This document shows positions 656 to 15,578 of a stretch of DNA of 15,578 nucleotides, one piece after another. Position 1 is the stretch's first letter; each line of letters begins with the position of its first letter. The DNA is from a virus (taxonomy: Duplodnaviria > Heunggongvirae > Uroviricota > Caudoviricetes): positions 1 to 15,578 of the IMG/VR virus record IMGVR_UViG_2534682222_000014, one strand, 5' to 3'. Made by a program: the position numbers and the translations under genes. The notes beneath the pieces were generated by a model. That model made no database searches, was not told the origin of the DNA, and saw only the letters and a program-made list of their open reading frames with translations.

Positions 656-700
656 TTAGCCCCCTCTTTATTGCTGTGAGTCCTCTCAGAACGAGGGGAA

Positions 701-725
701 TAAAAAAGGCCACCATCTGGTGACC
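701..725 (-). terminator. Intrinsic terminator downstream of the moron gene (leftward transcription)
   Basis: On the minus strand: GGUCACC-AGAU-GGUGGCC stem (7 bp with one G-U pair) followed by UUUUUU. Lies between the moron stop (744) and the holin-like start (655). Confidence 0.5.
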
Positions 726-743
726 TTCGTTAATTTTGAGTTG

Positions 744-1280: not shown

Positions 1281-1290
1281 ACTATCACCA

Positions 1291-1316
1291 TAAAAAAACC
1301 CCACCGAGGTGAGGTT
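1291..1316 (-). terminator. Intrinsic terminator, candidate tR' of the late operon
   Basis: Minus-strand CCUCACC-UCGG-UGGGG hairpin followed by UUUUUUU (plus-strand A-run 1292-1298), about 90 nt downstream of the Q stop and immediately before the moron RBS. Confidence 0.55.
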
Positions 1317-1332
1317 ATCATAGTGATCGATA

Positions 1333-1387
1333 GTTATACAAAGCCCATCATTGATGTCAAATATACACAAATACGGCAACATTGCAA
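1333..1387 (-). promoter_or_regulatory. Candidate late promoter (pR'-like) between Q and the terminator
   Basis: Minus strand reads TTGCAA-16 bp-TATATT (plus 1387-1382 and 1365-1360); an overlapping alternative is TTGACA-16 bp-TATAAC (plus 1360-1355 and 1338-1333). Sigma70-like hexamers seen by eye; which one is used is not established. Confidence 0.3.
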
Positions 1388-1403
1388 ACATCATGACGCT
1401 AAA

Positions 1404-2234: not shown

Positions 2235-2250
2235 ACGGTCTCCATACTTC

Positions 2251-3246
2251 TTAAGCTGTCGCAATTACGCCGATCGCCAGTGCTCGATCAATAAAACGCA
2301 GTAGCAGCTCAAGCTGCGTACCATGCTTCTGCTCGAATGCTGGTACATCGGCGTGTAACTCGTCGTGGCACTCTCTGCACAGAGGGATCACGAAGAGGTC
2401 ATGGGCTTTTGTTGCTGTACCACCCATACCGTGCCCTACGATATGGTGCGGATCATCTGCTGGCCGTCGGCAACACTCACAGGGTTGTGTTTTAACCCAG
2501 CGGGTGTACGTCTCATTTATCCAGCGGCGACGTTTTGGCCTGAGCATAAAAGACTCTGGCGACTCCGGATCAACAGAGAGCGTGAGGATCTTCTTCGCCT
2601 TCTCCTGCACGAGTCTGGTTGCTGACGAGGAAGGCACTATGTCGCTTTCCCTCATGACAGAACGGATCTTCTCATCCGGAAGGCGCAACCCTTTGTGCGC
2701 AACGCTTTCCGGAATAACATCAGCCAGGTCGTTTCTGACCATCCACCAGCACAGTTCAGGAAGCGTCAGGATATGCGACTCGGGAAAACCAGAATCACGC
2801 CGAATGACTTCCAGAATCCAGGATACCAGGTTTCCGGCCGCTATACCTGCAAGCTGTTCGGTATGCTGCCCCGACAAAGTGTGATCGCAATGCCAGCACA
2901 GGCGAATACTTCCTGGTGGGTGCCGCATTGTTGTGAAGTTCTTGTCGTGCCACGTTGAATGTGGCCACTGGCATTCAAACCGATTACTCAACCATTGCTC
3001 AAGGGAAGGAAGCCCACCGGCACGCTGAATAACCCTCTCATTCTCGAAGACCTGACGCATTACCGGATCATCAGCTAGCGGCTGAATGGCTGCCGGAACA
3101 GCCCCGGTACTGAATGACGCCATTTCTTCTGGTTCAGGCTCGAGCAGAACGCGACCACGCATGAAGAGGTGCATCAGTTCCGTACCGGGACGGAACAGCA
3201 CAATCCCCATACGATGGGCGATCTCGGGGGTAAGCAGAGCTCTCAC
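2251..3246 (-). CDS. YdfU-like DUF968 family prophage protein with C-terminal HNH-like Cys/His motif
   Basis: C-terminus PCECCRR...HHIVGHGMGG...IPLCRECHDELH is a zinc-finger/HNH-like signature recalled from YdfU/DUF968 proteins. Start uncertain: GTG at 3246 overlaps the Rha stop as GTGA with AGGGGG 9 nt upstream; the alternative GTG at 3279 gives 342 aa. Confidence 0.5.
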   Translation of the reverse strand: MRALLTPEIAHRMGIVLFRPGTELMHLFMRGRVLLEPEPEEMASFSTGAVPAAIQPLADDPVMRQVFENERVIQRAGGLPSLEQWLSNRFECQWPHSTWHDKNFTTMRHPPGSIRLCWHCDHTLSGQHTEQLAGIAAGNLVSWILEVIRRDSGFPESHILTLPELCWWMVRNDLADVIPESVAHKGLRLPDEKIRSVMRESDIVPSSSATRLVQEKAKKILTLSVDPESPESFMLRPKRRRWINETYTRWVKTQPCECCRRPADDPHHIVGHGMGGTATKAHDLFVIPLCRECHDELHADVPAFEQKHGTQLELLLRFIDRALAIGVIATA

Positions 3247-3926
3247 GCGACCTGCCCCCTGGCAATGTGTTCTGCCCACAGTCCACCAATCCAGCGCACG
3301 CCTTTCGCCGTGAAACGTGCCTGGCTGAATGCATGATTTGAGGTTACGGATGTGCCGGTTTTCATTTCAAAACGGCCCGCATCAATATGCTGATGCCGTG
3401 GGGTCATCGTTCCGCCAAGGCGATACATGATGTCGTTCTCAAGGAGGAATAACCGCAGATCTGGCTCTTTGGCCTTAAGCAGTTTTGCCACCTGGCGGAA
3501 TGACATTGACCCACTGGCTGTACAGTACCGATCAACAAACGCTACCTTCGGCGCAGCGGCAGCCAGTTCGTTAGTCAACTGTTGTTTTTGTTCTGCAAGG
3601 TCAGCTGCAAGACGTAGGGCTTCAGAGAATGATTGAGGAATCGTCTGCTGCTGTGCCTGCTCAAGCTCCTGCCAGCGATCAACCAGACGCGCGGTAAACT
3701 CCGGCGACAGCTGCGCGACAACGATATAACTGTCCCGCTTCCCTATCAGATAAACCGATACCGACTGATTGAGGTGATTTTTAACTTCCCCCATTGGGGG
3801 GAGTTCAATAACACCGCGCTCTGCCAGGCGTTCAATGGACCGTTTAACATGGTCATGTCGTGATTCCACCAGCTCAGCAATATCGCTGCTGGACATGGTT
3901 AATGCTGTTGTTGCTAATTGGCTCAT
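3243..3926 (-). CDS. Rha-family phage regulatory protein / antirepressor (Rha N-domain plus KilA-C/ANT-like C-domain)
   Basis: ATG at 3926 preceded by GGAG 7 nt upstream (track ORF extends to 3965). N-terminal SDIAELVESRHDHVKRSIERL matches the Rha-domain signature; C-terminal half resembles antirepressor KilA-C domains. Confidence 0.7.
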   Translation of the reverse strand: MSQLATTALTMSSSDIAELVESRHDHVKRSIERLAERGVIELPPMGEVKNHLNQSVSVYLIGKRDSYIVVAQLSPEFTARLVDRWQELEQAQQQTIPQSFSEALRLAADLAEQKQQLTNELAAAAPKVAFVDRYCTASGSMSFRQVAKLLKAKEPDLRLFLLENDIMYRLGGTMTPRHQHIDAGRFEMKTGTSVTSNHAFSQARFTAKGVRWIGGLWAEHIARGQVA

Positions 3927-3939
3927 ACTTTTCTCCATA

Positions 3940-4326
3940 TCAGGCGGCTGCACCCGCCGGTTCATATCTGCTGATCGTTATCTCTACCCGACCTTTCGGC
4001 ACTACGGGTCCCCATTCCACCAGCATGCGCTTAATCTGGCTGTCGTCTTCCCAGACACCCGCATGCGTCAGCGCGTCAAACAGGGCTTTGTTGTAATTAT
4101 CGATATCCCGGCGGCGCGCATCCGGCGGGTACAGAGTGATTTCAACCGCTGCCAGTTCAGTCGATGGCTTCGGGAGACGTCGTAATTGCTCAATGATCGC
4201 CACGCAGGCAGCGCTCTGGTATTTACGACCATCAGCGCTAATGAGGTGACGACCGGCCAGCGGCCCCTTATTAGGGGCGCGCCAGTAAGTGTTCACGCTC
4301 GGAGGAAAAGGCAGGATCAGTTTCAC
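3940..4326 (-). CDS. rusA: RusA-type Holliday-junction resolvase
   Basis: 128 aa, N-terminus KLILPFPPSVNTYW and acidic DIDNYNKALFDALTHAGVWEDD match RusA. GTG start overlaps the upstream stop as GTGA with GGGGAGAGG 4 nt upstream. Confidence 0.85.
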   Translation of the reverse strand: MKLILPFPPSVNTYWRAPNKGPLAGRHLISADGRKYQSAACVAIIEQLRRLPKPSTELAAVEITLYPPDARRRDIDNYNKALFDALTHAGVWEDDSQIKRMLVEWGPVVPKGRVEITISRYEPAGAAA

Positions 4327-5642
4327 GCGGCCTCTCCCCGCATATTGCGAACAAGTTCAGAAGCGGCAGTAATGATTTCGCTGGTGGCCGTTCGTTCCAG
4401 CCAGAGTTGATTGATGTTGGCTTTCAGCTTGTTCTGCTGTGATTCATCCAACATGTCAGCGCCATCTACCTGGTTGAACACAATCCCAACCTCCAGTGGC
4501 CAGATACGGGACTCGGGAAGCGGATCCGCTACTGGTTTAGCTTTCTCACGGATGTGCATGCGGATCTGGCGAATATTGGACCATCTGGAAACATCCAGGC
4601 TTCCCATGGCTGCAATGAAATCAGTGCTGTTCATGCCATATTCACCGGATGCTTCAAGGGCAACAGTGCGAATACGTTCCGACATATCCAGGCGCACTGC
4701 AGCGTCATCGAATTCAATCGACAACAACCACTCATCCACACCGAACAAAATACTCTCACGAATAAGCAGCTTCGCTTTGTCGATCGTTAATGGTGATACC
4801 TGAGTGAATTCCGGTGCTTCAACAGAATCCGCCGCCCAGGTATGCCCAAACTTCGATTCACTGAATGTGTATTCTTCTTTATCGCCAAACGCAGCTCTAA
4901 CGCATGCCCACGCCTCGACGCCGCTGACATCAAAAATATCTTTCTGAGTGAGTGGCAACTCAGCTTCTGGCTTATCAGCTGCAGGAGGTGTGGCAGTTGC
5001 AGGTTGAGACTTGCTGGCAGCAAATTGCGCCAAAGTCATAAACGCCCGCCCTTTTGCCTCCAGTTCTGTGCGGTTGATATAGCTGAACCGCTCAACACGC
5101 CACGACTTATCGAATACAGCTATGGCACCGGCAAAAAACGCGCTGGTGGGTTTCTGTTTTTCGTCAGCAGGTACAAACCACACAGGCAGATCGAACCCAA
5201 TACGACCACGAATGAATACAATGTGATCGGCATCTTCTGGCCACCACGTTTCACTCGGCGCGGCTTTTATCAGGAATACATAGCGACCGCCCTTCTCGCG
5301 CTGGGCTGCTGCGTAGTTCATGATATGCGTCATGCCGGTGATCGCCTGCTTCTCGTGGTACTGCGAACGGCTATACGGAGGGTTGCCATAACCAGCGCCG
5401 CCCAGTTCTGCCAGACGTTCAGACCAGTGCTGTGTCAGCGCGTTATCTTCGGCGGTGTACCATGCCGGGCACTTCGCGTTGTCGTCGTCAGCAAACAAGT
5501 CCAGAGCTAATGGACCAAATAGCGCGTTGATCCCCCAAAAAAGCAGATCCGGTGTCCGCCACTGATCGCCAACTTCTTTCAATTCGTGAGCTGGTTTGCT
5601 ACGCAGTGCCGCCAGCGCCTGGCAATATTTATTGGTCATCAT
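4323..5642 (-). CDS. Phage Dam-type N6-adenine DNA methyltransferase fused to a roughly 220-aa C-terminal domain of unknown function
   Basis: 439 aa. N-terminal half contains LDLFADDDN and the catalytic NPPY motif of N6-adenine MTases. C-terminal half (from about residue 215) has no motif I can assign. Start ATG overlaps the stop of the upstream initiator gene as ATGA. Confidence 0.7.
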   Translation of the reverse strand: MMTNKYCQALAALRSKPAHELKEVGDQWRTPDLLFWGINALFGPLALDLFADDDNAKCPAWYTAEDNALTQHWSERLAELGGAGYGNPPYSRSQYHEKQAITGMTHIMNYAAAQREKGGRYVFLIKAAPSETWWPEDADHIVFIRGRIGFDLPVWFVPADEKQKPTSAFFAGAIAVFDKSWRVERFSYINRTELEAKGRAFMTLAQFAASKSQPATATPPAADKPEAELPLTQKDIFDVSGVEAWACVRAAFGDKEEYTFSESKFGHTWAADSVEAPEFTQVSPLTIDKAKLLIRESILFGVDEWLLSIEFDDAAVRLDMSERIRTVALEASGEYGMNSTDFIAAMGSLDVSRWSNIRQIRMHIREKAKPVADPLPESRIWPLEVGIVFNQVDGADMLDESQQNKLKANINQLWLERTATSEIITAASELVRNMRGEAA

Positions 5643-6505
5643 GAACGGAACCCCGAATTTTCTGGCAGTGAGTAATCAACACTCTGGAAGTTTGCGCGGC
5701 TGGCTGAGTTAGTCTCCCATTTGCCGTTAACGCGTTCAGGCCGGCCAGCACTGGACCATTTGGTCGCGCTTTGCAGGTAACCAGGGAAGTTTTTTGGAAT
5801 GAACAGAGTTGCCGGGCGGAGGTATTGCGCCTGCTCGCTATCACGCCAATCGGCATTTTTGTAATCCACTACCAAGCACAGGTCATCAACAGTGAATTGT
5901 TCCCGAAGACGGGCGCGAATATTCTCCAGCGACGTGCTGCATACCTGGTAGCGTGAGCCAGTAGTCTGATTCAGGTAAGACAAAACCTGTCTGGCCTGAT
6001 CAGTAATCACAACCTCAGGGTCGGGTTGCGCCGCAACCGGACAAGAGGGTTTTGAAGTTACTTGTGGATCTTGTTTTGATTTTACTGACGGATCCCCGCC
6101 AGATTCTGACGGGTCAAAACCATCGTTTTTGCCAGATTTCGACGGGTCAGTTTTTGAGGCGTCAAATTTTGATGCGTCAGATTTTGACGTGTCAGAATCT
6201 GACAGTTGAGAAAATGCGGCAGTCTGAAGTTTCGCCACATTCAGCCGATACACGTTCGAAGCATTACGGTTACCATTACGGCGCTGTGTACGTGTGAGCC
6301 AGCCATCTTTTTCAAGCTTTGCGATTGCCGTTCTGATAGTGCTCGGGCCTGCGCCAAGCTGGCGAGCAATAGTTTCAATTGACGGCCAGCACACACCTTC
6401 ATCGCTGCTGAAGTCAGCAAGGCGAGCCATGATCGCAACACTGGACAACTTCATGCCCGACGCTGCGCAACCATCCCATACGTAGCCGGTTAATTTAGTG
6501 CTCAT
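5639..6505 (-). CDS. Replication initiation protein (O-like; N-terminal HTH, repeat linker, conserved phage C-terminal domain)
   Basis: 288 aa. N-terminal winged-helix-like region (PSIETIARQLGAGPSTIRTAIAKLEKDGWL), low-complexity S/K/D linker with 5-aa periodicity, and a C-terminal domain of the conserved-phage-C-terminus replisome-organiser type. Sits where lambda O lies, downstream of cro/cII. Confidence 0.7.
   Translation of the reverse strand: MSTKLTGYVWDGCAASGMKLSSVAIMARLADFSSDEGVCWPSIETIARQLGAGPSTIRTAIAKLEKDGWLTRTQRRNGNRNASNVYRLNVAKLQTAAFSQLSDSDTSKSDASKFDASKTDPSKSGKNDGFDPSESGGDPSVKSKQDPQVTSKPSCPVAAQPDPEVVITDQARQVLSYLNQTTGSRYQVCSTSLENIRARLREQFTVDDLCLVVDYKNADWRDSEQAQYLRPATLFIPKNFPGYLQSATKWSSAGRPERVNGKWETNSASRANFQSVDYSLPENSGFRS
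6087..6205. repeat. Iteron-like direct repeat array (candidate replication origin) inside the initiator gene
   Basis: Four in-phase tandem 15-mers at 6141-6200 (gacgggtcagttttt, gaggcgtcaaatttt, gatgcgtcagatttt, gacgtgtcagaatct), further copies at 6108-6122 and 6201-6205, and a weaker one at 6087-6101. They encode the SKxDx linker repeats. Confidence 0.6.
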
Positions 6506-6674
6506 GATCGTCCGTTATCTCCCTGAACTTTTGCCTGAAATGCTCAAGTGGGCTGAAGCATTCGTGTGGATAGCCATCTCGCAGGTAGATAACGCGCTGT
6601 GTTTCTGGCTCCCAGCGGATAACACGGACTGGCACTCCGCGGTGATCTTTGAACCTTCGGTTAAGTTCGCGCAC
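6495..6674 (-). CDS. Small hypothetical protein (59 aa), possibly DUF4222-like; overlaps the initiator start
   Basis: Below the track threshold, found by hand. GTG at 6674 with GGAGGG about 10 nt upstream; product VRELNRRFKDHRGVPVRVIRWEPETQRVIYLRDGYPHECFSPLEHFRQKFREITDDHEH; stop TAA 6495-6497 overlaps the O-like start by 11 nt. Family assignment is from memory only. Confidence 0.4.
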   Translation of the reverse strand: MRELNRRFKDHRGVPVRVIRWEPETQRVIYLRDGYPHECFSPLEHFRQKFREITDDHEH

Positions 6675-6846
6675 AGGCGTTTTGCCCTCCGATAGTAGAC
6701 CCCCACAATTACGGCAGCCTGGCTGTGGTTACATGACACCCAGCGATTTGATACTTTGCATTCATACCGAAACAGCGGAAGACCCGGCACCGGGATCATT
6801 CGTAGTTGCGGTAAGTGAGGATTTACGATTAAATTGCTCATGCGGA

Positions 6847-7398
6847 TTATTTCTCCATACTCGAAGAGTTGTTCGCCAAGGCGCCCGGAGCTGCACACTC
6901 GCGGGCGTCACTCTTTTCAGCGACACAAAAAACTCGGTAAAGCAGCGTGACGTGCTCCTGAAACTTCGCGATCACCTGGTAGCTGTTCTCCTCTATCTGA
7001 GCACGCTCATCTGCGTCAATCACCCCATCAGCAGTAGCCTTTCGCACAAAGGTAGAATGACGACCAATCCATTCAATGGACTCCATCAGGCGCTGGTTAA
7101 TATCGGCGTTATCCAAATCATCAACATCTGCCAGCGGTACGAATACGCCTTGAGAATGGCGCGCAACGGCATCAGCAATATGAGTCGAACCACCAGCACG
7201 CTGTAGAACCATCGCCCAACCCAACGGGAATATCTGATCGCCCTCAGTGCGGAGACGGTTGAACAACCCGTTCTCTGAAGTTCCTAACCATTCCGCGGCC
7301 TCGGCATACCCACCAGGAAGGTCGGTAATGGTTTTTTTTATTGCGACCACCAGCCAGGCTGGCTGACGTTCGACTTTCCAACTAGGTTCATTACCCAC
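6847..7398 (-). CDS. CII-like phage regulatory protein (CP76-type) or YdaT-like protein
   Basis: 183 aa, GTG start with AAGGGGG 6 nt upstream, 23 bp downstream of the cro stop. Assignment rests mainly on position after cro plus general resemblance to the longer CII (CP76) family. Confidence 0.45.
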   Translation of the reverse strand: MGNEPSWKVERQPAWLVVAIKKTITDLPGGYAEAAEWLGTSENGLFNRLRTEGDQIFPLGWAMVLQRAGGSTHIADAVARHSQGVFVPLADVDDLDNADINQRLMESIEWIGRHSTFVRKATADGVIDADERAQIEENSYQVIAKFQEHVTLLYRVFCVAEKSDARECAAPGALANNSSSMEK

Positions 7399-7421
7399 GG
7401 CTAACCCCCTTGTCTCTGTGG

Positions 7422-7625
7422 TTACTGCTTGTGTTGAGAATTGTTAAGTTTGCTGTAGAGAGAAGCGTCGTATTTCAACTTCCCGTTCGTAATTCTTTCA
7501 ATGTAAAGAGCCTGTTTTTCTGGGATTACTTCACCCCATTGACATACGGCACTGTGAGTTACCCCTAAGGCAACTGCGGTTTTAGAAATGCCGCCGTAGT
7601 AGTCGACGACTGTCCCTTTATGCAT
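7422..7625 (-). CDS. cro: Cro-like repressor (P22 Cro type)
   Basis: 67 aa, ATG preceded by AGAGGA. HTH segment ISKTAVALGVTHSAVCQWGEVIPEK closely resembles P22-type Cro. Divergent from the cI-like gene across a 100-bp operator region. Confidence 0.7.
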   Translation of the reverse strand: MHKGTVVDYYGGISKTAVALGVTHSAVCQWGEVIPEKQALYIERITNGKLKYDASLYSKLNNSQHKQ

Positions 7626-7725
7626 GGTTTGAATCCTCTTTAGTTAGCATTCTTACATCGTATATGGACAGCATACTTACGTCAATAAAATGTAAGATTG
7701 CTAACGTACATTCCGAGGAGATTTT
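7626..7725. promoter_or_regulatory. Divergent oR-like operator/promoter region (pR for cro, pRM for cI)
   Basis: Minus strand: TTGACG -35 (plus 7685-7680) with TATACG/TACGAT -10 candidates upstream of cro. Plus strand: TGGACA (7665-7670) and TAAAAT (7686-7691) upstream of cI. Half-site CTTAC/GTAAG at 7652-7656, 7676-7680 and 7692-7696; 9-mer ATGTAAGAT at 7690-7698. Confidence 0.5.
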
Positions 7726-8358
7726 ATGGATACCGTTGGCAGCAGACTGAGATTTAGAAGAAAGCAGAAAAAACTTACCCAGCGCGATGTGGCTGAGTGG
7801 GCAGGAGTAAGCGCGTCTGCTGTGACCCAGTGGGAAAGTGATTTAACAAAACTTTCTGGTGAGAACTTGATATTGGTGTGTAAATGCCTTCAGTGCTCGC
7901 CAGAATGGTTGGTTTTTGGTTCAGGCGATATCGAAAATGGCATTAACATCAACTTGATGTCTGCCAGAGAGGTCCCTCTCATATCATGGGTGCAAGCTGG
8001 TAATTGGACGGAAGTAATTGGAAATCCTAATAATGAACAAGTGAAAACCACTCGAAAACTTTCTGATTCCGCCTTTGCTTTGAGGGTTAAGGGAGATTCA
8101 ATGACTTCTAGCCAGGAGTTGAGTATTCCTGAAGGTTCTATTGTTATTGTTGAACCAGAGTTCGGCTTCGTGGATGAGGCAAACGGTAAAATTGTCGTTG
8201 CTCAAACGGTATCTGGTGGTGAGGCAACTTTAAAAAAGCTGGCGATAGACCCACCGTTTTCGTACCTAATCCCACTGAATCCTGCGTTTAAACCCATTGA
8301 GGTGAATCAAGAGACCAATCTAATTGGGATAGTTAAACAAATTATCATTGACCTTTAG
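7726..8358 (+). CDS. cI: cI-type prophage repressor (N-terminal XRE HTH, C-terminal LexA-like S24 peptidase)
   Basis: 210 aa, GAGGAG RBS. HTH (LTQRDVAEWAGVSASAVTQWE), Ala-Gly cleavage site (VQAGNW), Ser nucleophile in KGDSM and Lys in ATLKKL, typical of RecA-stimulated autocleaving repressors. Confidence 0.85.
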   Translation: MDTVGSRLRFRRKQKKLTQRDVAEWAGVSASAVTQWESDLTKLSGENLILVCKCLQCSPEWLVFGSGDIENGININLMSAREVPLISWVQAGNWTEVIGNPNNEQVKTTRKLSDSAFALRVKGDSMTSSQELSIPEGSIVIVEPEFGFVDEANGKIVVAQTVSGGEATLKKLAIDPPFSYLIPLNPAFKPIEVNQETNLIGIVKQIIIDL

Positions 8359-8374
8359 CCCCTCTGGTTCCTAC

Positions 8375-8402
8375 AAGCCCGCTGATCATGCGGGCTTTTT
8401 TA
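8375..8402 (+). terminator. Intrinsic terminator directly after the repressor gene
   Basis: AAGCCCGC-TGATCAT-GCGGGCTT hairpin followed by TTTTT, 17 bp after the cI stop. Not followed by a U-run on the opposite strand, so rightward only. Confidence 0.7.
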
Positions 8403-8414
8403 TGCCTGTGAAAA

Positions 8415-8469
8415 TATAGTAAGCAAACTTACAAAATAGACTTGACTGTAAATGTAAGATGTCTAATAT
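8415..8469 (+). promoter_or_regulatory. pL-like early-left promoter with operator sites
   Basis: TTGACT (8442-8447), 16-bp spacer, TAATAT (8464-8469). Near-palindromic 18-mer TAGTAAGCAAACTTACAA at 8415-8432, and ATGTAAGAT at 8452-8460 inside the spacer, identical to the 9-mer in the oR region. Confidence 0.5.
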
Positions 8470-8505
8470 TAAATCCATCAGCAACGAACATTGTGGGCAT
8501 CAGGA

Positions 8506-8709
8506 ATGAAGATAGAGTTGGTTGTTAACGGGAAAATTACTGCTGAGTGCAGTGATGAATCGGAGTTTCTGGCATTCAATGCTGCCGTTTTTAGCGCTCT
8601 ATCGGACATGCAACTTACCCTTCATTCCGAACGAAGGGCTCGTTCAAAATCTAAAATGGCGGCCTTCAATGAGAAGTTTTTTAAAACGGATCCCACGGGT
8701 CGCAATTAA
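8506..8709 (+). CDS. Hypothetical small protein (67 aa) downstream of the pL-like promoter
   Basis: ATG at 8506 (track ORF starts at TTG 8491). AGGA lies immediately next to the ATG, so translation signals are weak. Internal basic patch HSERRARSKSK but no N-terminal Arg-rich motif, so not called N. Overlaps a convergent ORF. Confidence 0.3.
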   Translation: MKIELVVNGKITAECSDESEFLAFNAAVFSALSDMQLTLHSERRARSKSKMAAFNEKFFKTDPTGRN

Positions 8710-8914
8710 GAGAATCAAGAAGCTTAATGGTTTGATAGGTGATGGCTTCCTGTTTAACAGTGTTTTCTGGGCTTGACAGTTGATCGCGCAATAATTGTAT
8801 TTGGTTATGCAGGTCATCTGATAGTGGGCCCTCATTAGCACATATTGCAGCTGAAATGGTCTTAATCGCAGCTTCAATAGCAGTGAGTCTTAACTCAATA
8901 ATATCGTTATTCAT
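8681..8914 (-). CDS. Hypothetical small acidic helical protein (77 aa), convergent with and overlapping the previous ORF
   Basis: ATG at 8914 (MNNDIIELRLTAIEAAIKTISAAICANEGPLSDDLHNQIQLLRDQL...), embedded in a longer track ORF. Weak RBS. AT-rich. 3' end overlaps the plus-strand ORF by 29 bp. Confidence 0.3.
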   Translation of the reverse strand: MNNDIIELRLTAIEAAIKTISAAICANEGPLSDDLHNQIQLLRDQLSSPENTVKQEAITYQTIKLLDSLNCDPWDPF

Positions 8915-9183
8915 AGGTTTATCTTCTTGGCTGTGTGAGAACTCCAAGAATACCACCGAGCCTGATGTGGTGAAAAGACAGGCATAGCCCAGACGATATC
9001 TGAGTGGCTTAAAAAACAGATGGGAACCGGTGGAATCCCGGTACACAACGAAAAGAGCGCTGGCATGCAAAAAATATCTCGCAGCCGTAGCAGTACCAAA
9101 AGCCAGGATGGAACGGCAGAAACGCGGTAGTGCTCTTTTTGATGTGGTAAACCCGTAGTAGCTGTACCAGATGCTGTGTGTAG

Positions 9184-9258
9184 TCTTGGCGGTACCAGGG
9201 TCTTCAACCTTATGCAAGGGGGACGAAGATAATGTTCTACCTCGGTACCGCCCTTTTT
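9184..9258 (+). ncRNA. Long hairpin with 3' T-run; candidate terminator or processed sRNA with DicF-like ends
   Basis: Perfect 9-bp stem GGCGGTACC (9188-9196) / GGTACCGCC (9244-9252) enclosing a 47-nt loop with internal pairings (CCTT-ATGC-AAGG, TCTTC/GAAGA), followed by TTTTT (9254-9258). The 5' arm TTGGCGGTACCAG and the 3' CCGCCCTTTTT resemble my recollection of E. coli DicF. Not verified. Confidence 0.25.
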
Positions 9259-9444
9259 ACACAACAGACAAGGGCATCACCGGGCGACGGGCTCATAACC
9301 CAATCCACCCGGGCAAAAAGAAAGCGGTCTCTCAAGCCGCCGACCAATGCAGGTGCCCTTCTCTGTTGTGTATGGAGAAAGTTCGGCGGTGGCAGCCGCC
9401 TTAACTTCGTGTATGGACTAAAACCTTGTGCAGAGGAAAGTTAA

Positions 9445-10362
9445 ATGAAATTACCTAAGTTCCGTAACGCAATCGTGTACCGCGCCACACTACCTAGCAT
9501 TGAAGCTATCGAGGGGCATCTGCTTGAACTCCCCTACTCCGAGATTGGTGAAACTGAGTTTTCACGCGCCTCTTTTGTGCCAAACACGATCACTGGCGAA
9601 TTGGTCACCCCAATATCAGGTGGGTATGCCATCGTGATCCGCCATGATCAGAAAATCATTCCCCAGCATGTTGTTTTGAAGGAAGCCGCAGCACGGATCC
9701 AAAGAATCGAAGATATGTCCGGGAGTAAAATCAAACGTATCGAACGATTAGCAATTATCGACAGCGTCCGCGTTGACCTGTGTAAACGGGCATTTGTTAA
9801 ATCAACGCTGATCCTTGCGTTGTACAGCACCAACGAAAAGCTATTAGTGGTCAATACGACCAATAAAAATATTGCCGGTATGGCTGTGGCTATGCTGGTG
9901 AAAGTTGTCGGTTCCGTTAAAACAGAAACAATCAACATTAGCGATATTAAGAACGGTTTAACTACGCGGTTGAAAAACTATATCAATGGCGTGGCCAATG
10001 CTTTTGAAGGGTTTACCGTCGGCAATTATATCCAGCTGTCCCGCCTTGCCGATCAAAATGAAGTTATTCGCTACTCAGCTGAACACGACTCAATTCAAAG
10101 CGAGCTAGTTGATAGCCTTAATAGCGGCTTTACCGCTGATAAAATGGAGCTAGCAGGATGCGGTGTATCGTTCATCCTCACCGAAAATTTCCATTTTTCG
10201 CGCATCAATACCCAAGCCCAAACATTCAACGATGAAGATGATAAAGCATTTCAATGGCGCCATCAGGCCGGGACGGATCTACTCCAATTCAGCAAAGTAG
10301 TAAACCTGATGTGTGATCTTCTTTCGTACAAAGAAGAACAGCCACAAAAACCCGCAGCCTAA
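9445..10362 (+). CDS. rdgC: RdgC-like recombination-associated protein
   Basis: 305 aa, GAGGAAA RBS. N-terminal FRNAIVYR and GYAIVIRHDQKIIPQHVVLKEAAARIQRIE align by eye with E. coli RdgC ([37 protein letters not shown]); length matches. Confidence 0.65.
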   Translation: MKLPKFRNAIVYRATLPSIEAIEGHLLELPYSEIGETEFSRASFVPNTITGELVTPISGGYAIVIRHDQKIIPQHVVLKEAAARIQRIEDMSGSKIKRIERLAIIDSVRVDLCKRAFVKSTLILALYSTNEKLLVVNTTNKNIAGMAVAMLVKVVGSVKTETINISDIKNGLTTRLKNYINGVANAFEGFTVGNYIQLSRLADQNEVIRYSAEHDSIQSELVDSLNSGFTADKMELAGCGVSFILTENFHFSRINTQAQTFNDEDDKAFQWRHQAGTDLLQFSKVVNLMCDLLSYKEEQPQKPAA

Positions 10363-10469
10363 TACCCCAGACCGTAATTAACCCATGTCATGGGTTGGGT
10401 TGCTGCACGCTAAATTTAGCAATTCATTAATTTAATAGCGCGGTGCAGCGCGCCAATATGGAGAAAACC

Positions 10470-11009
10470 ATGAGCTACATTCAGACATTATCCGGCAAAC
10501 ATTTTAATTACCTCGATATCCAACAGGACGATATCGTGATCGAGGATATTGCTACCGCGTTGTCTCATATCTGCCGTTTTGCAGGGCATCTTCCTGAGTT
10601 TTATAGCGTCGGCCAGCATAGCGTTTTAACCAGCCACCTCGTTCCGCAGGAGTTTGCATTAGAAGCACTGCTTCATGATGCTGCTGAAGCCTACCTGCAG
10701 GACATCCCATCCCCGCTTAAGCACCTGCTTCCGGATTACCAGGTGATCGAAGCTCGCGTGGATGCAGCCATTCGGCAGAAGTTCGGCCTACCGACGGAAC
10801 AACACCCAACTGTGAAATATGCCGATCTGGTGATGCTCGCCAGCGAACGCCGCGATTTTGAGGTTGACGAAGGTTCCGTGTGGCCATGCCTCGAGGGAGT
10901 TGTCCCAACGGATTTATTCATTATCAATCCAGTTCGTCCTGGCCAGTCATACGGCATGTTCATCAATCGCTTTAACGAATTGATGGAGCAGCGCCAATGC
11001 GCCGCATGA
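10470..11009 (+). CDS. HD-domain phosphohydrolase (YfbR-like 5'-deoxynucleotidase family)
   Basis: Start ATG at 10470 with GGAG 6 nt upstream (track ORF begins at GTG 10443). H...HD metal-binding signature (SVGQHSVLTSHL ... EALLHDAAEAY). 179 aa. Confidence 0.6.
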   Translation: MSYIQTLSGKHFNYLDIQQDDIVIEDIATALSHICRFAGHLPEFYSVGQHSVLTSHLVPQEFALEALLHDAAEAYLQDIPSPLKHLLPDYQVIEARVDAAIRQKFGLPTEQHPTVKYADLVMLASERRDFEVDEGSVWPCLEGVVPTDLFIINPVRPGQSYGMFINRFNELMEQRQCAA

Positions 11010-11173
11010 AGGTAAAAGAACTCGTAGCGGAGGCGTTTGCCTCCGTTGCTGAATTGCCACCAAAGCATGCACCGCTTATGCGCGAAGTCGCCACCAGACT
11101 AGAAGCTACGTTCGCAGCATTAAAAGAGTCTCTGGTGCAACTGGAACAGGAACGTAAAGGTAAAACGCCATGA
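11006..11173 (+). CDS. Hypothetical small protein (55 aa), translationally coupled
   Basis: Below the track threshold, found by hand. ATG 11006 overlaps the upstream stop as ATGA and its own TGA overlaps the next ATG as ATGA. Product MKVKELVAEAFASVAELPPKHAPLMREVATRLEATFAALKESLVQLEQERKGKTP. No separate RBS. Confidence 0.4.
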   Translation: MKVKELVAEAFASVAELPPKHAPLMREVATRLEATFAALKESLVQLEQERKGKTP

Positions 11174-11424
11174 CCGTATTTGAATATCTCCAGGCTCATC
11201 CAAATACCACCAGCGGTGAAATCGCCAAAGGCATGAACAAAACGACGCCAGCGGTCGCCGGAGCATTATCGCAACTCTATGGCACAGGCCGGATCGTGAA
11301 GTCTGGTGTTCGCAAGGGCATTCCAACATACCGTGTTAACGATATGCCGTTTGGGTGCAGTAACAGCCTAACCATGATGTTTAACCAGCTATTGAATAGC
11401 GCCAGACAGGGAGCAGCCCAATGA
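11170..11424 (+). CDS. Hypothetical small protein, possible winged-helix DNA-binding fold
   Basis: 84 aa; TSGEIAKGMNKTTPAVAGALSQLYGTGRIV resembles a winged-helix recognition segment. Start and stop both overlap neighbours as ATGA. Confidence 0.45.
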   Translation: MTVFEYLQAHPNTTSGEIAKGMNKTTPAVAGALSQLYGTGRIVKSGVRKGIPTYRVNDMPFGCSNSLTMMFNQLLNSARQGAAQ

Positions 11425-11978
11425 AAGCACTCAACAAACAGGCGTTGCGTGAAGCGGACAATGCCGCAAACATAGCTTCATGGGGTAAATGGGAGTCGTA
11501 TAAGCCACACAAAGGCGCGAGAGGATATGAAGTAAAAGTTGGTGCAAAGGCGGTAGCTCAACACTGCCTTAAAGTTGATTCGGCATTCATCGCCGCCGCC
11601 AACCCGCCCACCGTACTGGCGCTGCTGGATGAGCTGGAAGCCGCAGAGAAGCGCAATGCTGAATTACAGAGAGAGAATGCATATATCTGCAACCGACACA
11701 AAGAACTGGACCTGTTAATCGGGAAGAACATTCTGGTCATGCAAGCTGCGATTATCGAATGGCAGGCAACTGGTGACGCTAAGAACGGGCTGTCATGGAT
11801 TTATAACACGCTGTTTGGGCCTGGTGAATTGCCTGACGAATCTGAGAAAGATGCTCAGGCCTACTTTGACCGCAAATATGCACCGATTGACGAAGAGCTT
11901 ATGGCGCTTCACAAGTGGTTTTGGGAACAAAGTGAAGCCGAACGTGCCGCCGCTGGCATTGGCGTGAAGGGGGAATGA
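11421..11978 (+). CDS. Ead/Ea22-like phage protein
   Basis: 185 aa; FIAAANPPTVLALLDELEAAEKRNAELQ matches the conserved motif I recall for the Ead/Ea22-like family; typical location in a lambdoid early-left region. Confidence 0.5.
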   Translation: MKALNKQALREADNAANIASWGKWESYKPHKGARGYEVKVGAKAVAQHCLKVDSAFIAAANPPTVLALLDELEAAEKRNAELQRENAYICNRHKELDLLIGKNILVMQAAIIEWQATGDAKNGLSWIYNTLFGPGELPDESEKDAQAYFDRKYAPIDEELMALHKWFWEQSEAERAAAGIGVKGE

Positions 11979-11979
11979 G

Positions 11980-12357
11980 ATGGCACTGACGAAAAAACAG
12001 CGTGCAGAACTGCGCATGAAGTTTGGCGGTCGCTGTGCTTATTGCGGCTGTGAACTTGGCGATAAGTGGCATGCAGACCATGTAGAAGCGGTACGAAGAA
12101 ATATCAGCAACGGCTACGCAATGGACAGGCCAGAAAATGACACGGTCAGCAACATGGTTCCAGCATGCATTCCATGCAACTTGTTCAAAATGTGCAGCAC
12201 AGTAGAAGACTTTCGCAGCCGCATAGCCACTCAGGTTGATGTAACTCGCCGTGCGTCAAGAAGTTACCGCACAGCGGAATCATTTGGCCTGGTTAAACAG
12301 ACTAACGCACCAGTTGTGTTCTGGTTCGAGCGGTATCAAGAGGGGGATAACTTGTGA
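11980..12357 (+). CDS. HNH endonuclease
   Basis: 125 aa, AAGGGGG RBS. CAYCG...WHADHV...PACIPCN zinc-binding HNH signature. Confidence 0.75.
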   Translation: MALTKKQRAELRMKFGGRCAYCGCELGDKWHADHVEAVRRNISNGYAMDRPENDTVSNMVPACIPCNLFKMCSTVEDFRSRIATQVDVTRRASRSYRTAESFGLVKQTNAPVVFWFERYQEGDNL

Positions 12358-12572
12358 CCAAAATATTCCTGAAGAATTATCCGCGCCAAAGCCGTGTTAA
12401 AGAGGCTCTATTTTTCCTTCTCTTTCTTATTTTAATGATTCCAATATCACCGATAGTCCTCATCTGGTTAGCAGGAGAACAGGCAGAAAAGATAGCTGAG
12501 TGGTATAGCTCCATCGTATGGGGGCCATTTAACAAACTGCACAACAAATTAAATCCGTACAGGGAGGACTAA
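12354..12572 (+). CDS. Small single-pass membrane protein (72 aa), hypothetical
   Basis: GTG start overlapping the HNH stop as GTGA, with AGGGGGA 6 nt upstream. Central hydrophobic helix ALFFLLFLILMIPISPIVLIWLA. Confidence 0.5.
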   Translation: MTKIFLKNYPRQSRVKEALFFLLFLILMIPISPIVLIWLAGEQAEKIAEWYSSIVWGPFNKLHNKLNPYRED

Positions 12573-12575
12573 CCC

Positions 12576-13358
12576 ATGACAACTAACAACCACCCGGCGC
12601 ACGGTCCTGTATCACTCGATCGCCTGCACCAGATAAGCGAAATACTCAGCAAAGCAGCAGCGCAAAGTGACGGCGGTAATCTCGGCTACGCAATGGCTGA
12701 TGCTGTCAAGGTGATTGATGAAGTCCTGAATGCTGAGCCTGTGCTTTATGCCGCTGAGGAAACTCTGGCTTATGCAAAGATGGGTGATCTTCACCTTAAG
12801 TGCCTGTCTCAGCCAATGGGAGATGCGGTAATTCCGCTCTACACTGCCACGCCAGCGCAGGTAGTGCCGGAGAATTGCGTAACAGCAGAACACCGTCGCG
12901 TTATTGAAATGCTGCTCAATGTTTGCTGGGCCGCATTCGAACTCGCAGATGATAGCTGTCAGCAAGATGTTGATGGCGAAGAGTGCCACGTTGTTCCAGA
13001 CGACGCATTTCAGAAGCTAAGTGATGCGCTGGACGAAATAGAAAACACTATCCCGACAGAAGATGTCGACAGGCCAGACGTATTCCTTGCCTGGTCGGCA
13101 ATGCCAAGGGCAGCGCTGAAATCTATTCTCCAGGCTGGCAACTCTCCGGTAACTCCGGATGACGTACTCCGCATGGACTGGCTGGTATCTAAAACCGTTG
13201 ATGTTCGTGAGCCTATGGTTTACGGAAGCCATAGCATTTTCTGGTCGCAGACCATCACGGATGAAGATGACGATTATCACGCGACCAAATTACGTGAGCA
13301 AATCGATGCAGCTATGGCAGCTGAGCAGGCAGCAGCACCGCAGCAGGAGAATGTATAA
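12576..13358 (+). CDS. Hypothetical acidic phage protein (260 aa)
   Basis: ATG at 12576 with AGGGAGGA 8 nt upstream; long ORF with coding-like composition; no motif I can assign. Confidence 0.55.
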   Translation: MTTNNHPAHGPVSLDRLHQISEILSKAAAQSDGGNLGYAMADAVKVIDEVLNAEPVLYAAEETLAYAKMGDLHLKCLSQPMGDAVIPLYTATPAQVVPENCVTAEHRRVIEMLLNVCWAAFELADDSCQQDVDGEECHVVPDDAFQKLSDALDEIENTIPTEDVDRPDVFLAWSAMPRAALKSILQAGNSPVTPDDVLRMDWLVSKTVDVREPMVYGSHSIFWSQTITDEDDDYHATKLREQIDAAMAAEQAAAPQQENV

Positions 13359-13359
13359 C

Positions 13360-13929
13360 GTGAACAATTTAATGATCGACCTCGAATCCATGGGCAAAAA
13401 ACCAAATGCCCCTATCGTCTCCATAGGTGCCGTGTTCTTCGATCCGCAAAGCGGTGAACTGGGTCAGGAGTTTTACAGCGCCGTTAACCTTGAAAGCGCT
13501 ATGGAGCAGGGAGCGGTGCCGGACGGTGACACTATTCTGTGGTGGTTAAGACAAAGCTCAGAAGCACGATCAGCAATCTGTGTTGATGATGCGATGCCGA
13601 TATCATCTGCCCTATCTGAACTGAGCCATTTCATTAATCGGCATTCTGATAACCCTAAATATTTAAAAGTTTGGGGCAATGGAGCTACTTTCGACAACGT
13701 TATATTGCGCGGCGCATATGAGCGTGCCGGCCAGGTTTGCCCGTGGCAATTTTGGAATGATCACGACGTCAGAACCATCGTCACATTAGGCAGAGTTGTA
13801 GGTTTCGATCCTAAGCGTGATATGCCATTTGATGGGGTTGCACATAACGCACTGGCTGATGCCCGCCACCAGGCGAAATATGTTTCAGCGATTTGGCAGA
13901 AACTAATCCCAACCACCAGCAACAACTAA
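13360..13929 (+). CDS. DEDDh-type 3'-5' exonuclease (DnaQ-like fold)
   Basis: Motifs MIDLESMG (D-x-E), WGNGATFDNVIL (Asp) and HNALADARHQ (His, Asp). Start ambiguous: ATG 13351 (AGGAGA directly adjacent), GTG 13360 (about 10 nt spacing, chosen) or ATG 13372. Track ORF extends upstream to 13159 in the same frame, overlapping the previous gene. Confidence 0.65.
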   Translation: MNNLMIDLESMGKKPNAPIVSIGAVFFDPQSGELGQEFYSAVNLESAMEQGAVPDGDTILWWLRQSSEARSAICVDDAMPISSALSELSHFINRHSDNPKYLKVWGNGATFDNVILRGAYERAGQVCPWQFWNDHDVRTIVTLGRVVGFDPKRDMPFDGVAHNALADARHQAKYVSAIWQKLIPTTSNN

Positions 13930-13969
13930 AATTTTCCCCGGGTGCAGCCGGGATAATGGAGAAATAACT

Positions 13970-14206
13970 ATGAGCAATATTTTCCAGTTAGCTCCCAACG
14001 ATTGGGTTTGTGAAAGCGTTCTGATCGCGGTTACCGGGCTCAAACCCGGAACCATCACCCGTGCCAGAAAAGAATGCTGGATGATTGGGAGGGAGTATAT
14101 CCACGTATCGCCTGACGGAAATCCCAAACCTTCCAGTGAGTGCATGTATAACAGAAAGGCTGTAGATGCCTGGGTCGCTTCAATGAAAAGCAAGCAGCCA
14201 GGGTGA
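13970..14206 (+). CDS. xis: Excisionase-like protein
   Basis: 78 aa, GGAG 8 nt upstream, immediately upstream of int in the same orientation. Small basic protein resembling prophage excisionase-like proteins; assignment partly positional. Confidence 0.6.
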   Translation: MSNIFQLAPNDWVCESVLIAVTGLKPGTITRARKECWMIGREYIHVSPDGNPKPSSECMYNRKAVDAWVASMKSKQPG

Positions 14207-14264
14207 TTTGATGCCATGAAAAAGGTAAGCTCGTATCGCTCTTGGGCGTCTGGAGGTAACACCA

Positions 14265-15578
14265 ATGGATAAAGTCACATATCCAACAGGCGTCGAAAAC
14301 CACGGTGGCACATTACGCATCTGGTTTAATTTTAAAGGTAAGCGTGTCAGGGAAAGTCTCGGTGTCCCTGACACCGCTAAGAACAGAAAGGTAGCCGGGG
14401 AACTGCGGACATCAGTATGTTTTGCCATCCGCACAGGAACCTTTGATTATGCAACCCAGTTTCCTGACTCCCCTAACCTCAAGGCTTTTGGTGTAAGTAA
14501 AAAAGACATTACAGTGAAAGAACTTGAAGAAAAATGGCTGGATCTGAAACGGATGGAAATCTGCGCGAACGCATTCAATCGCTATGAATCTGTCGCAAGG
14601 AATATGGTGCCGAGGATCGGAGGTAATCGCCTGGTGTCAGCAGTAACCAAAGAGGAATTGCTGTATCTTAGGAAAGATTTGCTAACTGGTTATCAGAGTC
14701 CGACGAAAAATAAAGCCCCGGCAAAAGGGCGAAGCGTTGTTACTGTGAACTATTACATGACGACAATGGCCGGAATGTTTCAGTTTGCTGCGGATCACGG
14801 TTACTTAGAGGTGAACCCATTCGAGGGAATTAAACCTCTGAAAAAAGCCAGGGCAGAACCAGATCCTCTGTCTCGTGATGAATTTATTCGCCTGATAGAT
14901 GCATGCCGGCATCAGCAGACGAAAAACCTGTGGTCATTAGCAGTGTACACAGGAATGCGTCACGGGGAACTGGTCTCCCTGGCCTGGGAAGATATCGACC
15001 TGAAGGCGGGAACAATTACCGTCAGGCGTAATTATACGAAACTTGGTGAGTTCACTCTACCGAAAACCGAGGCAAGTACAGATCGAGTGGTGCATCTTAT
15101 CCAGCCCGCAATCAGTATCCTGAAAAATCAGGCTGAAATGACAAGGCTGGGCAGGCAATATCACATTGAAGTGCAGTTACGTGAGTACGGTCGTTCGGTG
15201 AACCATGAGTGTACATTCGTCTTTAACCCGCATGTGGTCAGACGCAGTAAGCAGGTCGGATTTATCTACCGGGTCGATTCAGTAGGCGACTCATGGGAAG
15301 CTGCACTAAAGCGCGCGGGGATCAGACACAGAAAGGCGTACCAGTCACGACATACCTATGCGTGCTGGTCATTATCTGCTGGTGCAAACCCGAGTTTTAT
15401 TGCCAGTCAGATGGGGCATGCGAGCGCGCAGATGGTGTTCAATGTTTACGGTGCATGGATGGCTGACAGCAGCGCAGAGCAGATCGCAATGCTGAATCAG
15501 AAGCTGGCAGATTTTGCCCCATTGATGCCCCATAGCCACGAGAGCAGTACGGGAGGATTATTAAAATCAGTAAGTTAA
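14265..15578 (+). CDS. int: Tyrosine site-specific integrase (IntR/DLP12-type N-terminal arm-binding domain)
   Basis: 437 aa, GGAGGT RBS. N-terminus TGVENHGGTLRIWFNFKGKRVRESLG...GTFDYATQFPDS matches Rac/DLP12-type integrases. C-terminal catalytic region shows R...HxxR...Y-context (RHTYACW, GHASAQMVFNVYGAW). Stop TAA at 15576-15578. Confidence 0.9.
   Translation: MDKVTYPTGVENHGGTLRIWFNFKGKRVRESLGVPDTAKNRKVAGELRTSVCFAIRTGTFDYATQFPDSPNLKAFGVSKKDITVKELEEKWLDLKRMEICANAFNRYESVARNMVPRIGGNRLVSAVTKEELLYLRKDLLTGYQSPTKNKAPAKGRSVVTVNYYMTTMAGMFQFAADHGYLEVNPFEGIKPLKKARAEPDPLSRDEFIRLIDACRHQQTKNLWSLAVYTGMRHGELVSLAWEDIDLKAGTITVRRNYTKLGEFTLPKTEASTDRVVHLIQPAISILKNQAEMTRLGRQYHIEVQLREYGRSVNHECTFVFNPHVVRRSKQVGFIYRVDSVGDSWEAALKRAGIRHRKAYQSRHTYACWSLSAGANPSFIASQMGHASAQMVFNVYGAWMADSSAEQIAMLNQKLADFAPLMPHSHESSTGGLLKSVS

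Follow-up and report, generated by a model that had tools for sequence, protein, structure and literature searches.

The 15,578-nucleotide (nt) stretch of DNA analysed here (the window) corresponds to positions 1 to 15,578 of the IMG/VR virus record IMGVR_UViG_2534682222_000014 and is a lambdoid prophage. The interval under study is present with 100% identity in E. coli NZ_LR536430.1, where the prophage adjoins yecN-cmoA. A cro-like gene (7422-7625, minus strand) and a cI/LexA-like repressor gene (7726-8358, plus strand) are divergent; the repressor gene is followed by an intrinsic terminator and a pL-like promoter, and rdgC starts at 9445 (PF04381, E = 3e-33). A first-pass annotation made from the sequence had located these landmarks correctly and had described the ∼1 kb between the terminator and rdgC (8403-9444) as devoid of any convincing protein gene, with a content likely to be regulatory or accessory and possibly RNA-based. 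Comparison with related prophages divided this interval in two: positions 8506-8914 hold two convergent small protein genes, while the description fits positions 8915-9444, which contain conserved, structured RNA elements with covarying helices in a layout resembling that of the dicBF region of prophage Qin. The explanation that we favour, and regard as rather probable when taken as a whole, is that the two genes are followed by an array of clamped RNA cassettes that would be cut by RNase III, with a terminator provided by module B. The features of the region are the following.

8375-8403, plus strand: intrinsic terminator after the cI-like repressor gene (8-bp GC-rich stem at 8375-8397, then TTTTTAT)
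8442-8469, plus strand: predicted pL-type early-left promoter (TTGACT-N16-TAATAT, with an operator-like 10-mer in the spacer)
8506-8709, plus strand: gene for a 67-residue protein, first of the early-left operon (homologues, codon-position pattern)
8681-8914, minus strand: gene for a 77-residue protein, convergent with the preceding one and overlapping it by 29 bp (phrog_28250, PGAP, codon-position pattern)
8924-8984, plus strand: boundary element at the start of the array (hairpin UUCUUGG..CCAAGAA, then the conserved block ACCACCGAGCCUGAUGUGGUGAAAAGACAGGCA)
9044-9146, plus strand: cassette A (17-bp clamp CACAACGAAAAGAGCGC / GUGCUCUUUUUGAUGUG around a core of ∼70 nt)
9173-9258, plus strand: module B (single-stranded GCUGUGUGUAGUCUU, GC-rich hairpin GGCGGUACC...GGUACCGCC, UUUUU)
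9260-9370, plus strand: cassette C (18-bp clamp CACAACAGACAAGGGCAU / GUGCCCUUCUCUGUUGUG, conserved hairpin 1, variable hairpin 2)
9286-9306, plus strand: invariant apical motif of cassette C (GAC-GGG-CUCAUAA-CCC-AAUCC)
9385-9400, plus strand: small hairpin (GGCGG-UGGCAG-CCGCC), present in the minimum free energy (MFE) fold
9424-9444, plus strand: hairpin CCU-UGUGCAG-AGG and spacer to the ATG at 9445 (sequence, MFE fold)

The convergent genes and the untranslated stretch behind them

The two open reading frames (ORFs) at 8506-8914 have the coordinates and the overlap given in the first-pass annotation, which had considered them weakly supported; that judgement did not survive comparison with relatives. 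In a collection of 5.8 billion protein sequences, the plus-strand ORF had 17 clusters of full-length homologues with identities down to 72%, and the minus-strand ORF had 10 such clusters with identities down to 75%; the homologues include proteins of Enterobacter and Leclercia, among others. The minus-strand ORF also matched phrog_28250 over its full length (E = 3e-39), and was the sole coding sequence called in the interval by the Prokaryotic Genome Annotation Pipeline (PGAP; WP_001058060.1). A divergent relative, locus L089 (related loci bear L numbers), has other cI and cro genes, yet it carries the same convergent pair, a gap of ∼530 nt and rdgC. When the two loci were compared, the differences at codon positions 1, 2 and 3 numbered 9, 11 and 29 in the plus-strand ORF and 13, 3 and 40 in the minus-strand ORF, and synonymous codon changes exceeded replacements in both, which indicates purifying selection on both proteins. 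Judged by these sequence comparisons, the two ORFs are genuine small protein genes. Homology to ordinary conserved proteins, the finding that had been named as refuting the idea of a non-coding interval, was thus obtained for 8506-8914, and the suggestion of an RNA-based content fails for that part.

The alignment of the plus-strand protein shows conservative substitutions and an invariant Arg-rich ERRxRxxSKM. No Pfam, PHROG, NCBIfam or PADLOC family matched it; its AlphaFold2 model (predicted local distance difference test score, 82.5) is composed of a beta-hairpin and one 40-residue helix, with which a Foldseek search of the PDB returned nothing below E = 4. For the minus-strand protein, phrog_28250 was the only family found, with no Pfam, NCBIfam or PADLOC match, and its model, three helices predicted with low confidence, was too poor for a fold search. 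The first-pass annotation had pointed out that this position carries N, rexAB or sieB-type genes in lambdoid phages; no resemblance to any of these was detected by the PHROG, Pfam, NCBIfam and PADLOC family searches. The plus-strand protein does occupy the position of N in lambda, and its Arg-rich stretch ERRARSKSK is only a lead toward an N-type role. The convergent pair moves as a unit among phages with different repressors, and its 3′ overlap, 29 nt here, is ∼47 nt in L089.

Upstream of the pair, the 10-mer AATGTAAGAT occupies positions 8451-8460 in the spacer of the promoter-like site at 8442-8469. Its sole other occurrence is at 7689-7698, between cro and cI. The presence of the 10-mer at both sites fits a repressor-controlled promoter of the pL type, and the site at 8442-8469 is presumably under the control of the repressor.

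The ∼530 nt downstream of the pair had been said to hold only implausible reading frames, which was borne out, since no frame in 8915-9444 was supported as coding. The plus strand of this stretch folds better than its shuffles (z = -5.0). The scan with Rfam covariance models that had been proposed for the interval gave no match at gathering thresholds anywhere in the window. At E ≤ 10, the region 8300-9550 gave chance-level matches and a weak DicF match; those to Trp_leader and NsiR1 are spurious matches of the terminator type, their source being the cI terminator. Rfam has no family for cassette A or cassette C. The proposed alignment with related prophages was more productive, as it showed a codon pattern in the two ORFs and a structural pattern in 8915-9444, and only this comparison makes the array structure visible. 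Beside five related loci, a repeated frame was seen in which a 5′ arm starting with CACAAC is followed by a variable interior and by a 3′ arm ending in GUUGUG; the paired arms form a clamp of 17-19 bp.

Structure, conservation and distribution of the cassettes

Loci were collected from IMG/VR through their rdgC genes (80 loci; 88 for the count of cassette C). Cassette C lies directly upstream of rdgC in 53 of the 88. In the window it has an MFE of -48.4 kcal/mol (z = -5.65). In an alignment of 23 distinct variants, 98.9% of the cells at paired positions can pair and eight pairs show compensatory changes; the 18 bp of the clamp are paired in 100% of the cells, and four of the clamp pairs have compensatory changes. 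A wider set was obtained by searching a single genome of each species for the core 18-mer and aligning the enterobacterial matches, which gave 20 sequences from 14 genera. In this set 97.1% of the cells are paired, as against 86.8% in shuffles and 37-52% when the partners were slid along one another, and 15 of the 30 pairs show compensatory changes, as against 8.6 ± 1.5 in shuffles (none of 500 reached this value). The ∼15 matches to the 18-mer outside Enterobacterales were rejected as homologues, being either at chance level (∼35 expected in 596 Gb) or real tRNA-fMet genes. A hairpin in an Acidobacteriaceae metagenome-assembled genome (L113, ∼5401, minus strand), with 23 nt identical to the apex and two nested helices, was likewise taken to be at chance level and left uncounted; it lies 59 nt upstream of an 83-residue ORF.

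Cassette C occurs in length variants of 90, 92 and 116 nt, with indels of 2 and 26 nt, so any reading frame through it is broken. G·U cells greatly exceed A·C cells in the 23-variant alignment (∼37 versus 2), and also in the clamps of 31 distinct cassettes (38 versus 5), a set partly biased by the way it was collected. This excess and the constant orientation of the cassettes relative to the genes indicate an RNA on the plus strand.

In the variants and across the 14 genera, the apical motif of cassette C is invariant save for Y at loop position 2, one U/C alternation in AAYCC and rare loop changes, while the helices flanking it covary. The sequence GGGCUCAUAACCC within it (9289-9301) is what we take to be the anticodon stem-loop of the E. 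coli initiator tRNA-fMet, with the three G-C pairs typical of initiators. Scanning for the exact pattern found the motif in ∼28 Enterobacterales genomes; it also caught 3′ parts of real tRNA-fMet genes of other phyla (L092, L123, L133 and L134). Cassette C retains only three of the five pairs of the anticodon stem, and the loop variants CCCAUCA and CCCACCA occur, with loop positions 2 and 6 changed in a few variants; the resemblance is for these reasons a lead toward tRNA mimicry and not a result. The motif was also observed in other clamps, of Raoultella and Pantoea (L100, ∼1930, minus strand; L115, ∼3035; L131, ∼3055, minus strand), in each case downstream of a terminator and ∼110-260 nt upstream of genes for holin-like membrane proteins. 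Its presence in leaders of late operons as well suggests that it accompanies the beginning of long phage operons (the early-left one here, holin-like late genes there) and not rdgC in particular. A speculative reading, which we hold to be doubtful, is that cassette C functionally imitates the anticodon arm of initiator tRNA and engages a host factor that reads this arm, candidates being the 30S P site with initiation factor 3, methionyl-tRNA synthetase, and, with the cassette as a decoy, a tRNA-fMet-specific anticodon nuclease belonging to a defence or toxin system. In a broader version, the clamped cassettes would be an exchangeable toolkit of mimics of tRNA parts (T arms in the class T described below, the anticodon arm in class C) that RNase III sets free.

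Cassette A has an MFE of -35.2 kcal/mol (z = -3.64). Of the 17 positions of its clamp, 16 are paired, two of them as G·U pairs on the plus strand. L002, L004, L050 and L075 have copies with 93-95% identity, placed after cI and ahead of the first early gene. A pseudoknot in which CUGGC/GCCAG crosses GCCGU/ACGGC is predicted as possible in its core.

Module B was represented by 18 variants, in which the 5′ stretch is invariant and the loops are variable. Its hairpin, present in the MFE fold, and the UUUUU that follows span 9188-9258. The Rfam DicF model (RF00039) matched 9175-9253 with 16.6 bits (E = 1.3; gathering threshold, 48 bits); K-12 dicF, used as a control, scored 76.7 bits, and a shorter copy of module B in L040 scored 33 bits (E = 3.4e-5). 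The context is of the DicF type: module B lies inside an early-left operon, downstream of a cI-like repressor, and ends at a Rho-independent terminator. STnc100 (RF02076; gathering threshold, 47 bits), a prophage-encoded small RNA (sRNA) of Salmonella and E. coli, gave no match in 8300-9550 at E ≤ 10. In L017, the STnc100 threshold is reached (49.1 bits) by module B together with an element whose frame is the inverse one, GUUGUGGUG...CACCACAAC, the match at 2157-2379 running through module B. We regard module B, on these model scores, as a distant relative of the 3′ modules of DicF and STnc100 that belongs to neither family.

A strict scan for the terminal motifs and the duplex across the 80 loci returned 91 cassettes in the 1-kb rdgC leaders, none elsewhere in the loci and none in shuffled sequences. 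The arrays are mosaic, in that phages combine different cassettes and each cassette has relatives of its own. The largest one, in L040, has eight elements over ∼900 nt. Each element of class T has a pair of covarying hairpins that resemble T arms (loop UUCRAUU on a 5-bp stem closed by a G-C pair), and a further class is that of Qin/mEp390. In L002, a true tRNA-Arg(UCU) (3221-3297; 67 bits with Rfam, also called by ARAGORN) directly follows the GUUGUG of cassette A, and in L040 a tRNA-like element (1929-2054; 39.9 bits, uncalled by ARAGORN) takes the place of a cassette; it has intact acceptor, D and T arms, and a 68-nt insert replaces the anticodon arm. Among 5,426 complete E. coli genomes, ∼330 matched part of the 530-nt stretch; one of them is that of the probiotic strain Nissle 1917, in which cassette C is 98% identical.

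The boundary element, conserved in sequence, was recovered from 16 loci as 13 variants; the first cassette follows it immediately, and the genes ahead of it are unrelated and lie on either strand. Its stability is unremarkable (z = -0.35). It might serve the pL transcript as a cis signal, or be the promoter from which the minus-strand gene is expressed. The element, with a loop of the UGUGUGAGAAC type in its hairpin and ACCACCGAGCCUGAUGUGGUGAAAAGACAGGCA as the second part, was seen in L002, L006, L011, L017, L040, L043, L057 and others.

Relationship to Qin dicBF and proposed processing

Qin has a homologous cassette with this frame, CAUAACGCGAAAGCGCA...GUGCGCUUCCGGUUGUG, in the untranslated region that separates ydfC from dicF (L008, 2674-2757). 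The layout of the two regions is alike: both are found downstream of a cI-like repressor gene (dicA in Qin) and a pL-like promoter, with small ORFs preceding and the first larger early gene following; each includes a long stretch without translation that carries a clamped cassette (CAUAAC...GUUGUG in Qin); and in both an sRNA module ends in a GGCGG...CCGCCCUUUUU terminator. They differ in that cores A and C of the window share no sequence relationship with the core in Qin, module B resembles DicF only distantly and showed, in the crude test described below, no complementarity to ftsZ beyond that of shuffles, and no dicB follows it.

The Qin RNAs are generated by RNase III, RNase E and termination (PMC10448788, PMC5069750). 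RNase III makes the 5′ end of the 190-nt DicF precursor (PMC10448788) and the 3′ end of the 72-nt DicF (PMC5069750, PMC9438474). Counting 190 nt back from the 3′ end of DicF, with the annotated dicF coordinates, leads to L008 2746-2752, which is within the 3′ clamp arm (2741-2757) of the Qin cassette. By the same arithmetic the 3′ end of the 72-nt DicF falls at ∼2954, within a perfect 14-bp duplex (2945-2958 / 3079-3092) that clamps an STnc100-like element upstream of dicB. The clamps of the window, of 17 and 18 bp, are likewise double-stranded helices formed by the sequences flanking the RNA that would be released, and fall in the range of about 17-20 bp or more expected of such sites.

These similarities are consistent with the following scheme. 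In the early-left (pL-type) transcript, 8915-9444 would make up a long region that is not translated; it carries RNA cassettes instead of protein genes, each with a variable folded core held within a conserved clamp of 17-19 bp with CACAAC...GUUGUG-type ends. By homology with Qin dicBF, the clamps would be RNase III processing sites. After prophage induction, cleavage of the pL transcript in this phage would then yield small RNAs (cores A and C), which may act in trans, and a trimmed rdgC mRNA. The module B terminator would end a DicF/STnc100-type small RNA and, like the terminator of DicF ahead of dicB, would also reduce transcription of rdgC by attenuation. The structures, with their conservation, covariation and strand, the confinement of the cassettes to this leader and the homology to Qin come from the sequence comparisons, whereas RNase III cleavage in this phage, termination at B and any action of the released RNAs in trans are inferred.

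Several points weigh against this scheme. We infer both the expression and the cleavage of cassettes A and C of this phage. The position of the Qin cleavages is arithmetic from published fragment lengths (accurate to about ±6 nt) and not a published coordinate. Module B falls short of the DicF threshold (16.6 versus 48 bits), and when copies of it were paired with the ftsZ start region (-60 to +40) in a crude RNAduplex test, 71-93% of shuffles paired as well or better, in an assay that barely separates real DicF from its own shuffles (12% of them as good). The minus strand of cassette C, taken as a single sequence, folds as well as the plus strand (z = -5.85); thermodynamics was accordingly rejected as a strand criterion, and the strand call for this cassette rests on the G·U asymmetry and the gene order. 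The five known variants of cassette A hardly differ, and so little variation does not allow the structure of its core to be tested. Lastly, transcription of rdgC past an efficient B terminator is unexplained because no N-like antiterminator was found.

Alternative readings and related systems

The last point is the one that a processive antitermination or anti-Rho leader would account for. The elements would then act in cis on RNA polymerase, resembling put of HK022 or boxA/Nus sites, and a phage without N would by this means pass the B terminator and escape Rho over the 530-nt untranslated stretch. The phage has no recognisable N, the intrinsic terminator B lies inside the operon, the boundary element is kept at the head of every array, and a boxA-like UGCUCUUU is frequent in the 3′ clamp arms. 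Cassettes are moreover absent from the early-left regions examined of phi80 (N and nutL) and HK022 (put), in a comparison limited to two N- or put-bearing phages. However, no significant similarity to the HK022 immunity/put region was detected, nor any to the phi80 nut region, there is no cassette in the HK022 locus, and the array starts ∼450 nt downstream of the promoter. The GCUCUUU strings that resemble boxA are base-paired inside the clamp helices, and other cassette classes carry GCGCUUCC in their place. For a lambda-type nut site the observations can be read either way: no N-like family for either small protein and no boxB candidate were identified, but the plus-strand protein has the Arg-rich stretch mentioned above. 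The cores are interchangeable and differ between phages, which would be odd for a polymerase-binding element, and cassette C, located downstream of B, would be of no help in reading through it. An antitermination leader was on these grounds considered unlikely.

The cassettes might also be a degenerate array of tRNA genes, handled by the tRNA machinery and not by RNase III; RNase P or Z, synthetases, the ribosome, or anticodon nucleases for which they serve as decoys, would be the routes. The true tRNA of L002 and the tRNA-like element of L040, both at cassette positions, agree with this, as do the covarying T-arm-like hairpins of class T and the initiator-tRNA anticodon stem-loop of cassette C. 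Against it, neither ARAGORN nor the Rfam tRNA model found a tRNA in the window; cassettes A and C have no cloverleaf, D arm, T arm or CCA end; and in cassette C the anticodon stem keeps three of its five pairs and the loops CCCAUCA and CCCACCA occur. This reading, which overlaps with that of clamped cassettes cut by RNase III and is partly compatible with it, appeared quite unlikely.

Elements acting at the DNA level are a further alternative, and a very unlikely one. The inverted repeats would be sites of recombination or mobility (attC-like hairpins, shuffling linkers) and the RNA structure a by-product. The integron inverse-core/core consensus is RYYYAAC/GTTRRRY, and the ACACAAC...GTTGTGT ends of the cassettes agree with it at six of seven positions at each end; the mosaic distribution, with relatives peculiar to each cassette, and the palindromic ends, which make the strands look alike, would also be accommodated. 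The large excess of G·U over A·C is, in contrast, what is expected for plus-strand RNA, and the compensatory changes in internal hairpins would be needless for a recombinase. No integron integrase is annotated, the only recombinase being the tyrosine integrase of the prophage, a neighbour of xis; the cassettes are all oriented alike, in a transcribed leader; and published RNase III ends fall, by the arithmetic placement given above, within homologous stems of Qin. That the stretch is decayed coding sequence or a set of mis-called small ORFs is hardly credible, since, despite a match of the 70-residue ORF 9232-9444 (plus strand) to phrog_33599 (E = 2e-12), a family that is probably a set of spurious ORF calls over cassette C RNA, and the annotation of hypothetical proteins over these segments in some phage records, close variants differ by indels of 2 and 26 nt and by pairing-preserving substitutions with no codon pattern, and PGAP annotates nothing in 8915-9444.

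With clamped cassettes cut by RNase III as the preferred reading, the locus can be set beside other known systems. One is STnc100, which belongs to the same array family: in L017 the model covers a clamped element and module B directly upstream of cassette C; in the window, cassette A and a spacer replace the clamped element. Copies of STnc100 have also been reported from late regions, downstream of stx2 (PMC12370729). A preprint on Pas sRNAs (10.64898/2026.05.13.724894) was discarded as a match, as it concerns late-region sRNAs from another locus.

In rRNA operons and in phage T7 early mRNA, too, a long helix flanks a structured RNA within a polycistronic transcript, and its cleavage by RNase III releases the enclosed RNA. 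The helices of the window differ in that they enclose cores of 50-100 nt and have ends of conserved sequence (CACAAC/GUUGUG), a feature not needed by RNase III itself. Phage tRNA clusters, such as the T4 region with its species 1 and 2 RNAs, are similar in having small structured RNAs back to back, and true tRNAs are mixed into the arrays of L002 and L040; the window, unlike these clusters, has no tRNA, and its processing would occur at RNase III clamps and not through RNase P. The thrS operator, which mimics the anticodon arm of tRNA-Thr, resembles cassette C as a hairpin in a 5′ leader with the exact anticodon loop and upper stem of one tRNA (here, the initiator tRNA-fMet), whereas the genes downstream of the cassette C motif (rdgC and others, or holin-like genes in Raoultella and Pantoea) are unconnected to methionine or initiation.

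Literature searches for a clamp-and-cassette architecture, or for phage leaders with a mimic of initiator tRNA, gave no relevant result, and the papers on Qin dicBF used here do not describe such an organisation. DicF has hitherto been treated as a single sRNA in the long untranslated region of one cryptic prophage. The present locus is a prophage RNA locus of the DicF/STnc100 type, recognised as a modular array of clamp-insulated cassettes, two types of which are outside Rfam even though their structures are among those best supported by comparative data. This suggests that the Qin region is one instance of a modular system widespread in N-less lambdoid prophages of Enterobacterales. The cassettes provide new candidates for host-manipulating phage RNAs, and the proposed rule that a clamp is a processing site may serve to find more; they also raise the question of why an initiator-tRNA anticodon arm should be conserved before phage early genes.

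Between cassette C and rdgC, the stems of the hairpin at 9385-9400 covary, and most relatives have a loop of the UGCAG type. The 3′ arm of the second hairpin (9424-9436) is the Shine-Dalgarno sequence of rdgC, and the same CCUUUGCAGAGG arrangement precedes rdgC in L004, L040 and L046. Hairpins with UGCAG-type loops, for instance GCGG-AUUUGCAG-CCGC, recur in the window, in L003, L004, L005 and L040, and as hairpin 2 of many cassette C variants; they could be a repeated protein-binding or translational-control motif. A 10-codon ORF (MEKVRRWQPP; 9372-9404, plus strand) has its AUG directly after the cassette C clamp and spans the next hairpin. It has a 10-codon counterpart in L003, the AUG is missing from most variants, and the ORF is probably a coincidence. 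Elsewhere in the window, a stretch of low GC content (744-1394, minus strand; 34-38% GC versus ∼50% around it) coincides with an ORF flanked by the Q-like antiterminator gene on one side and the holin genes on the other. The ORF, part of which PGAP annotates as a HemY N-terminal domain protein, looks like an accessory gene acquired in the late leader.

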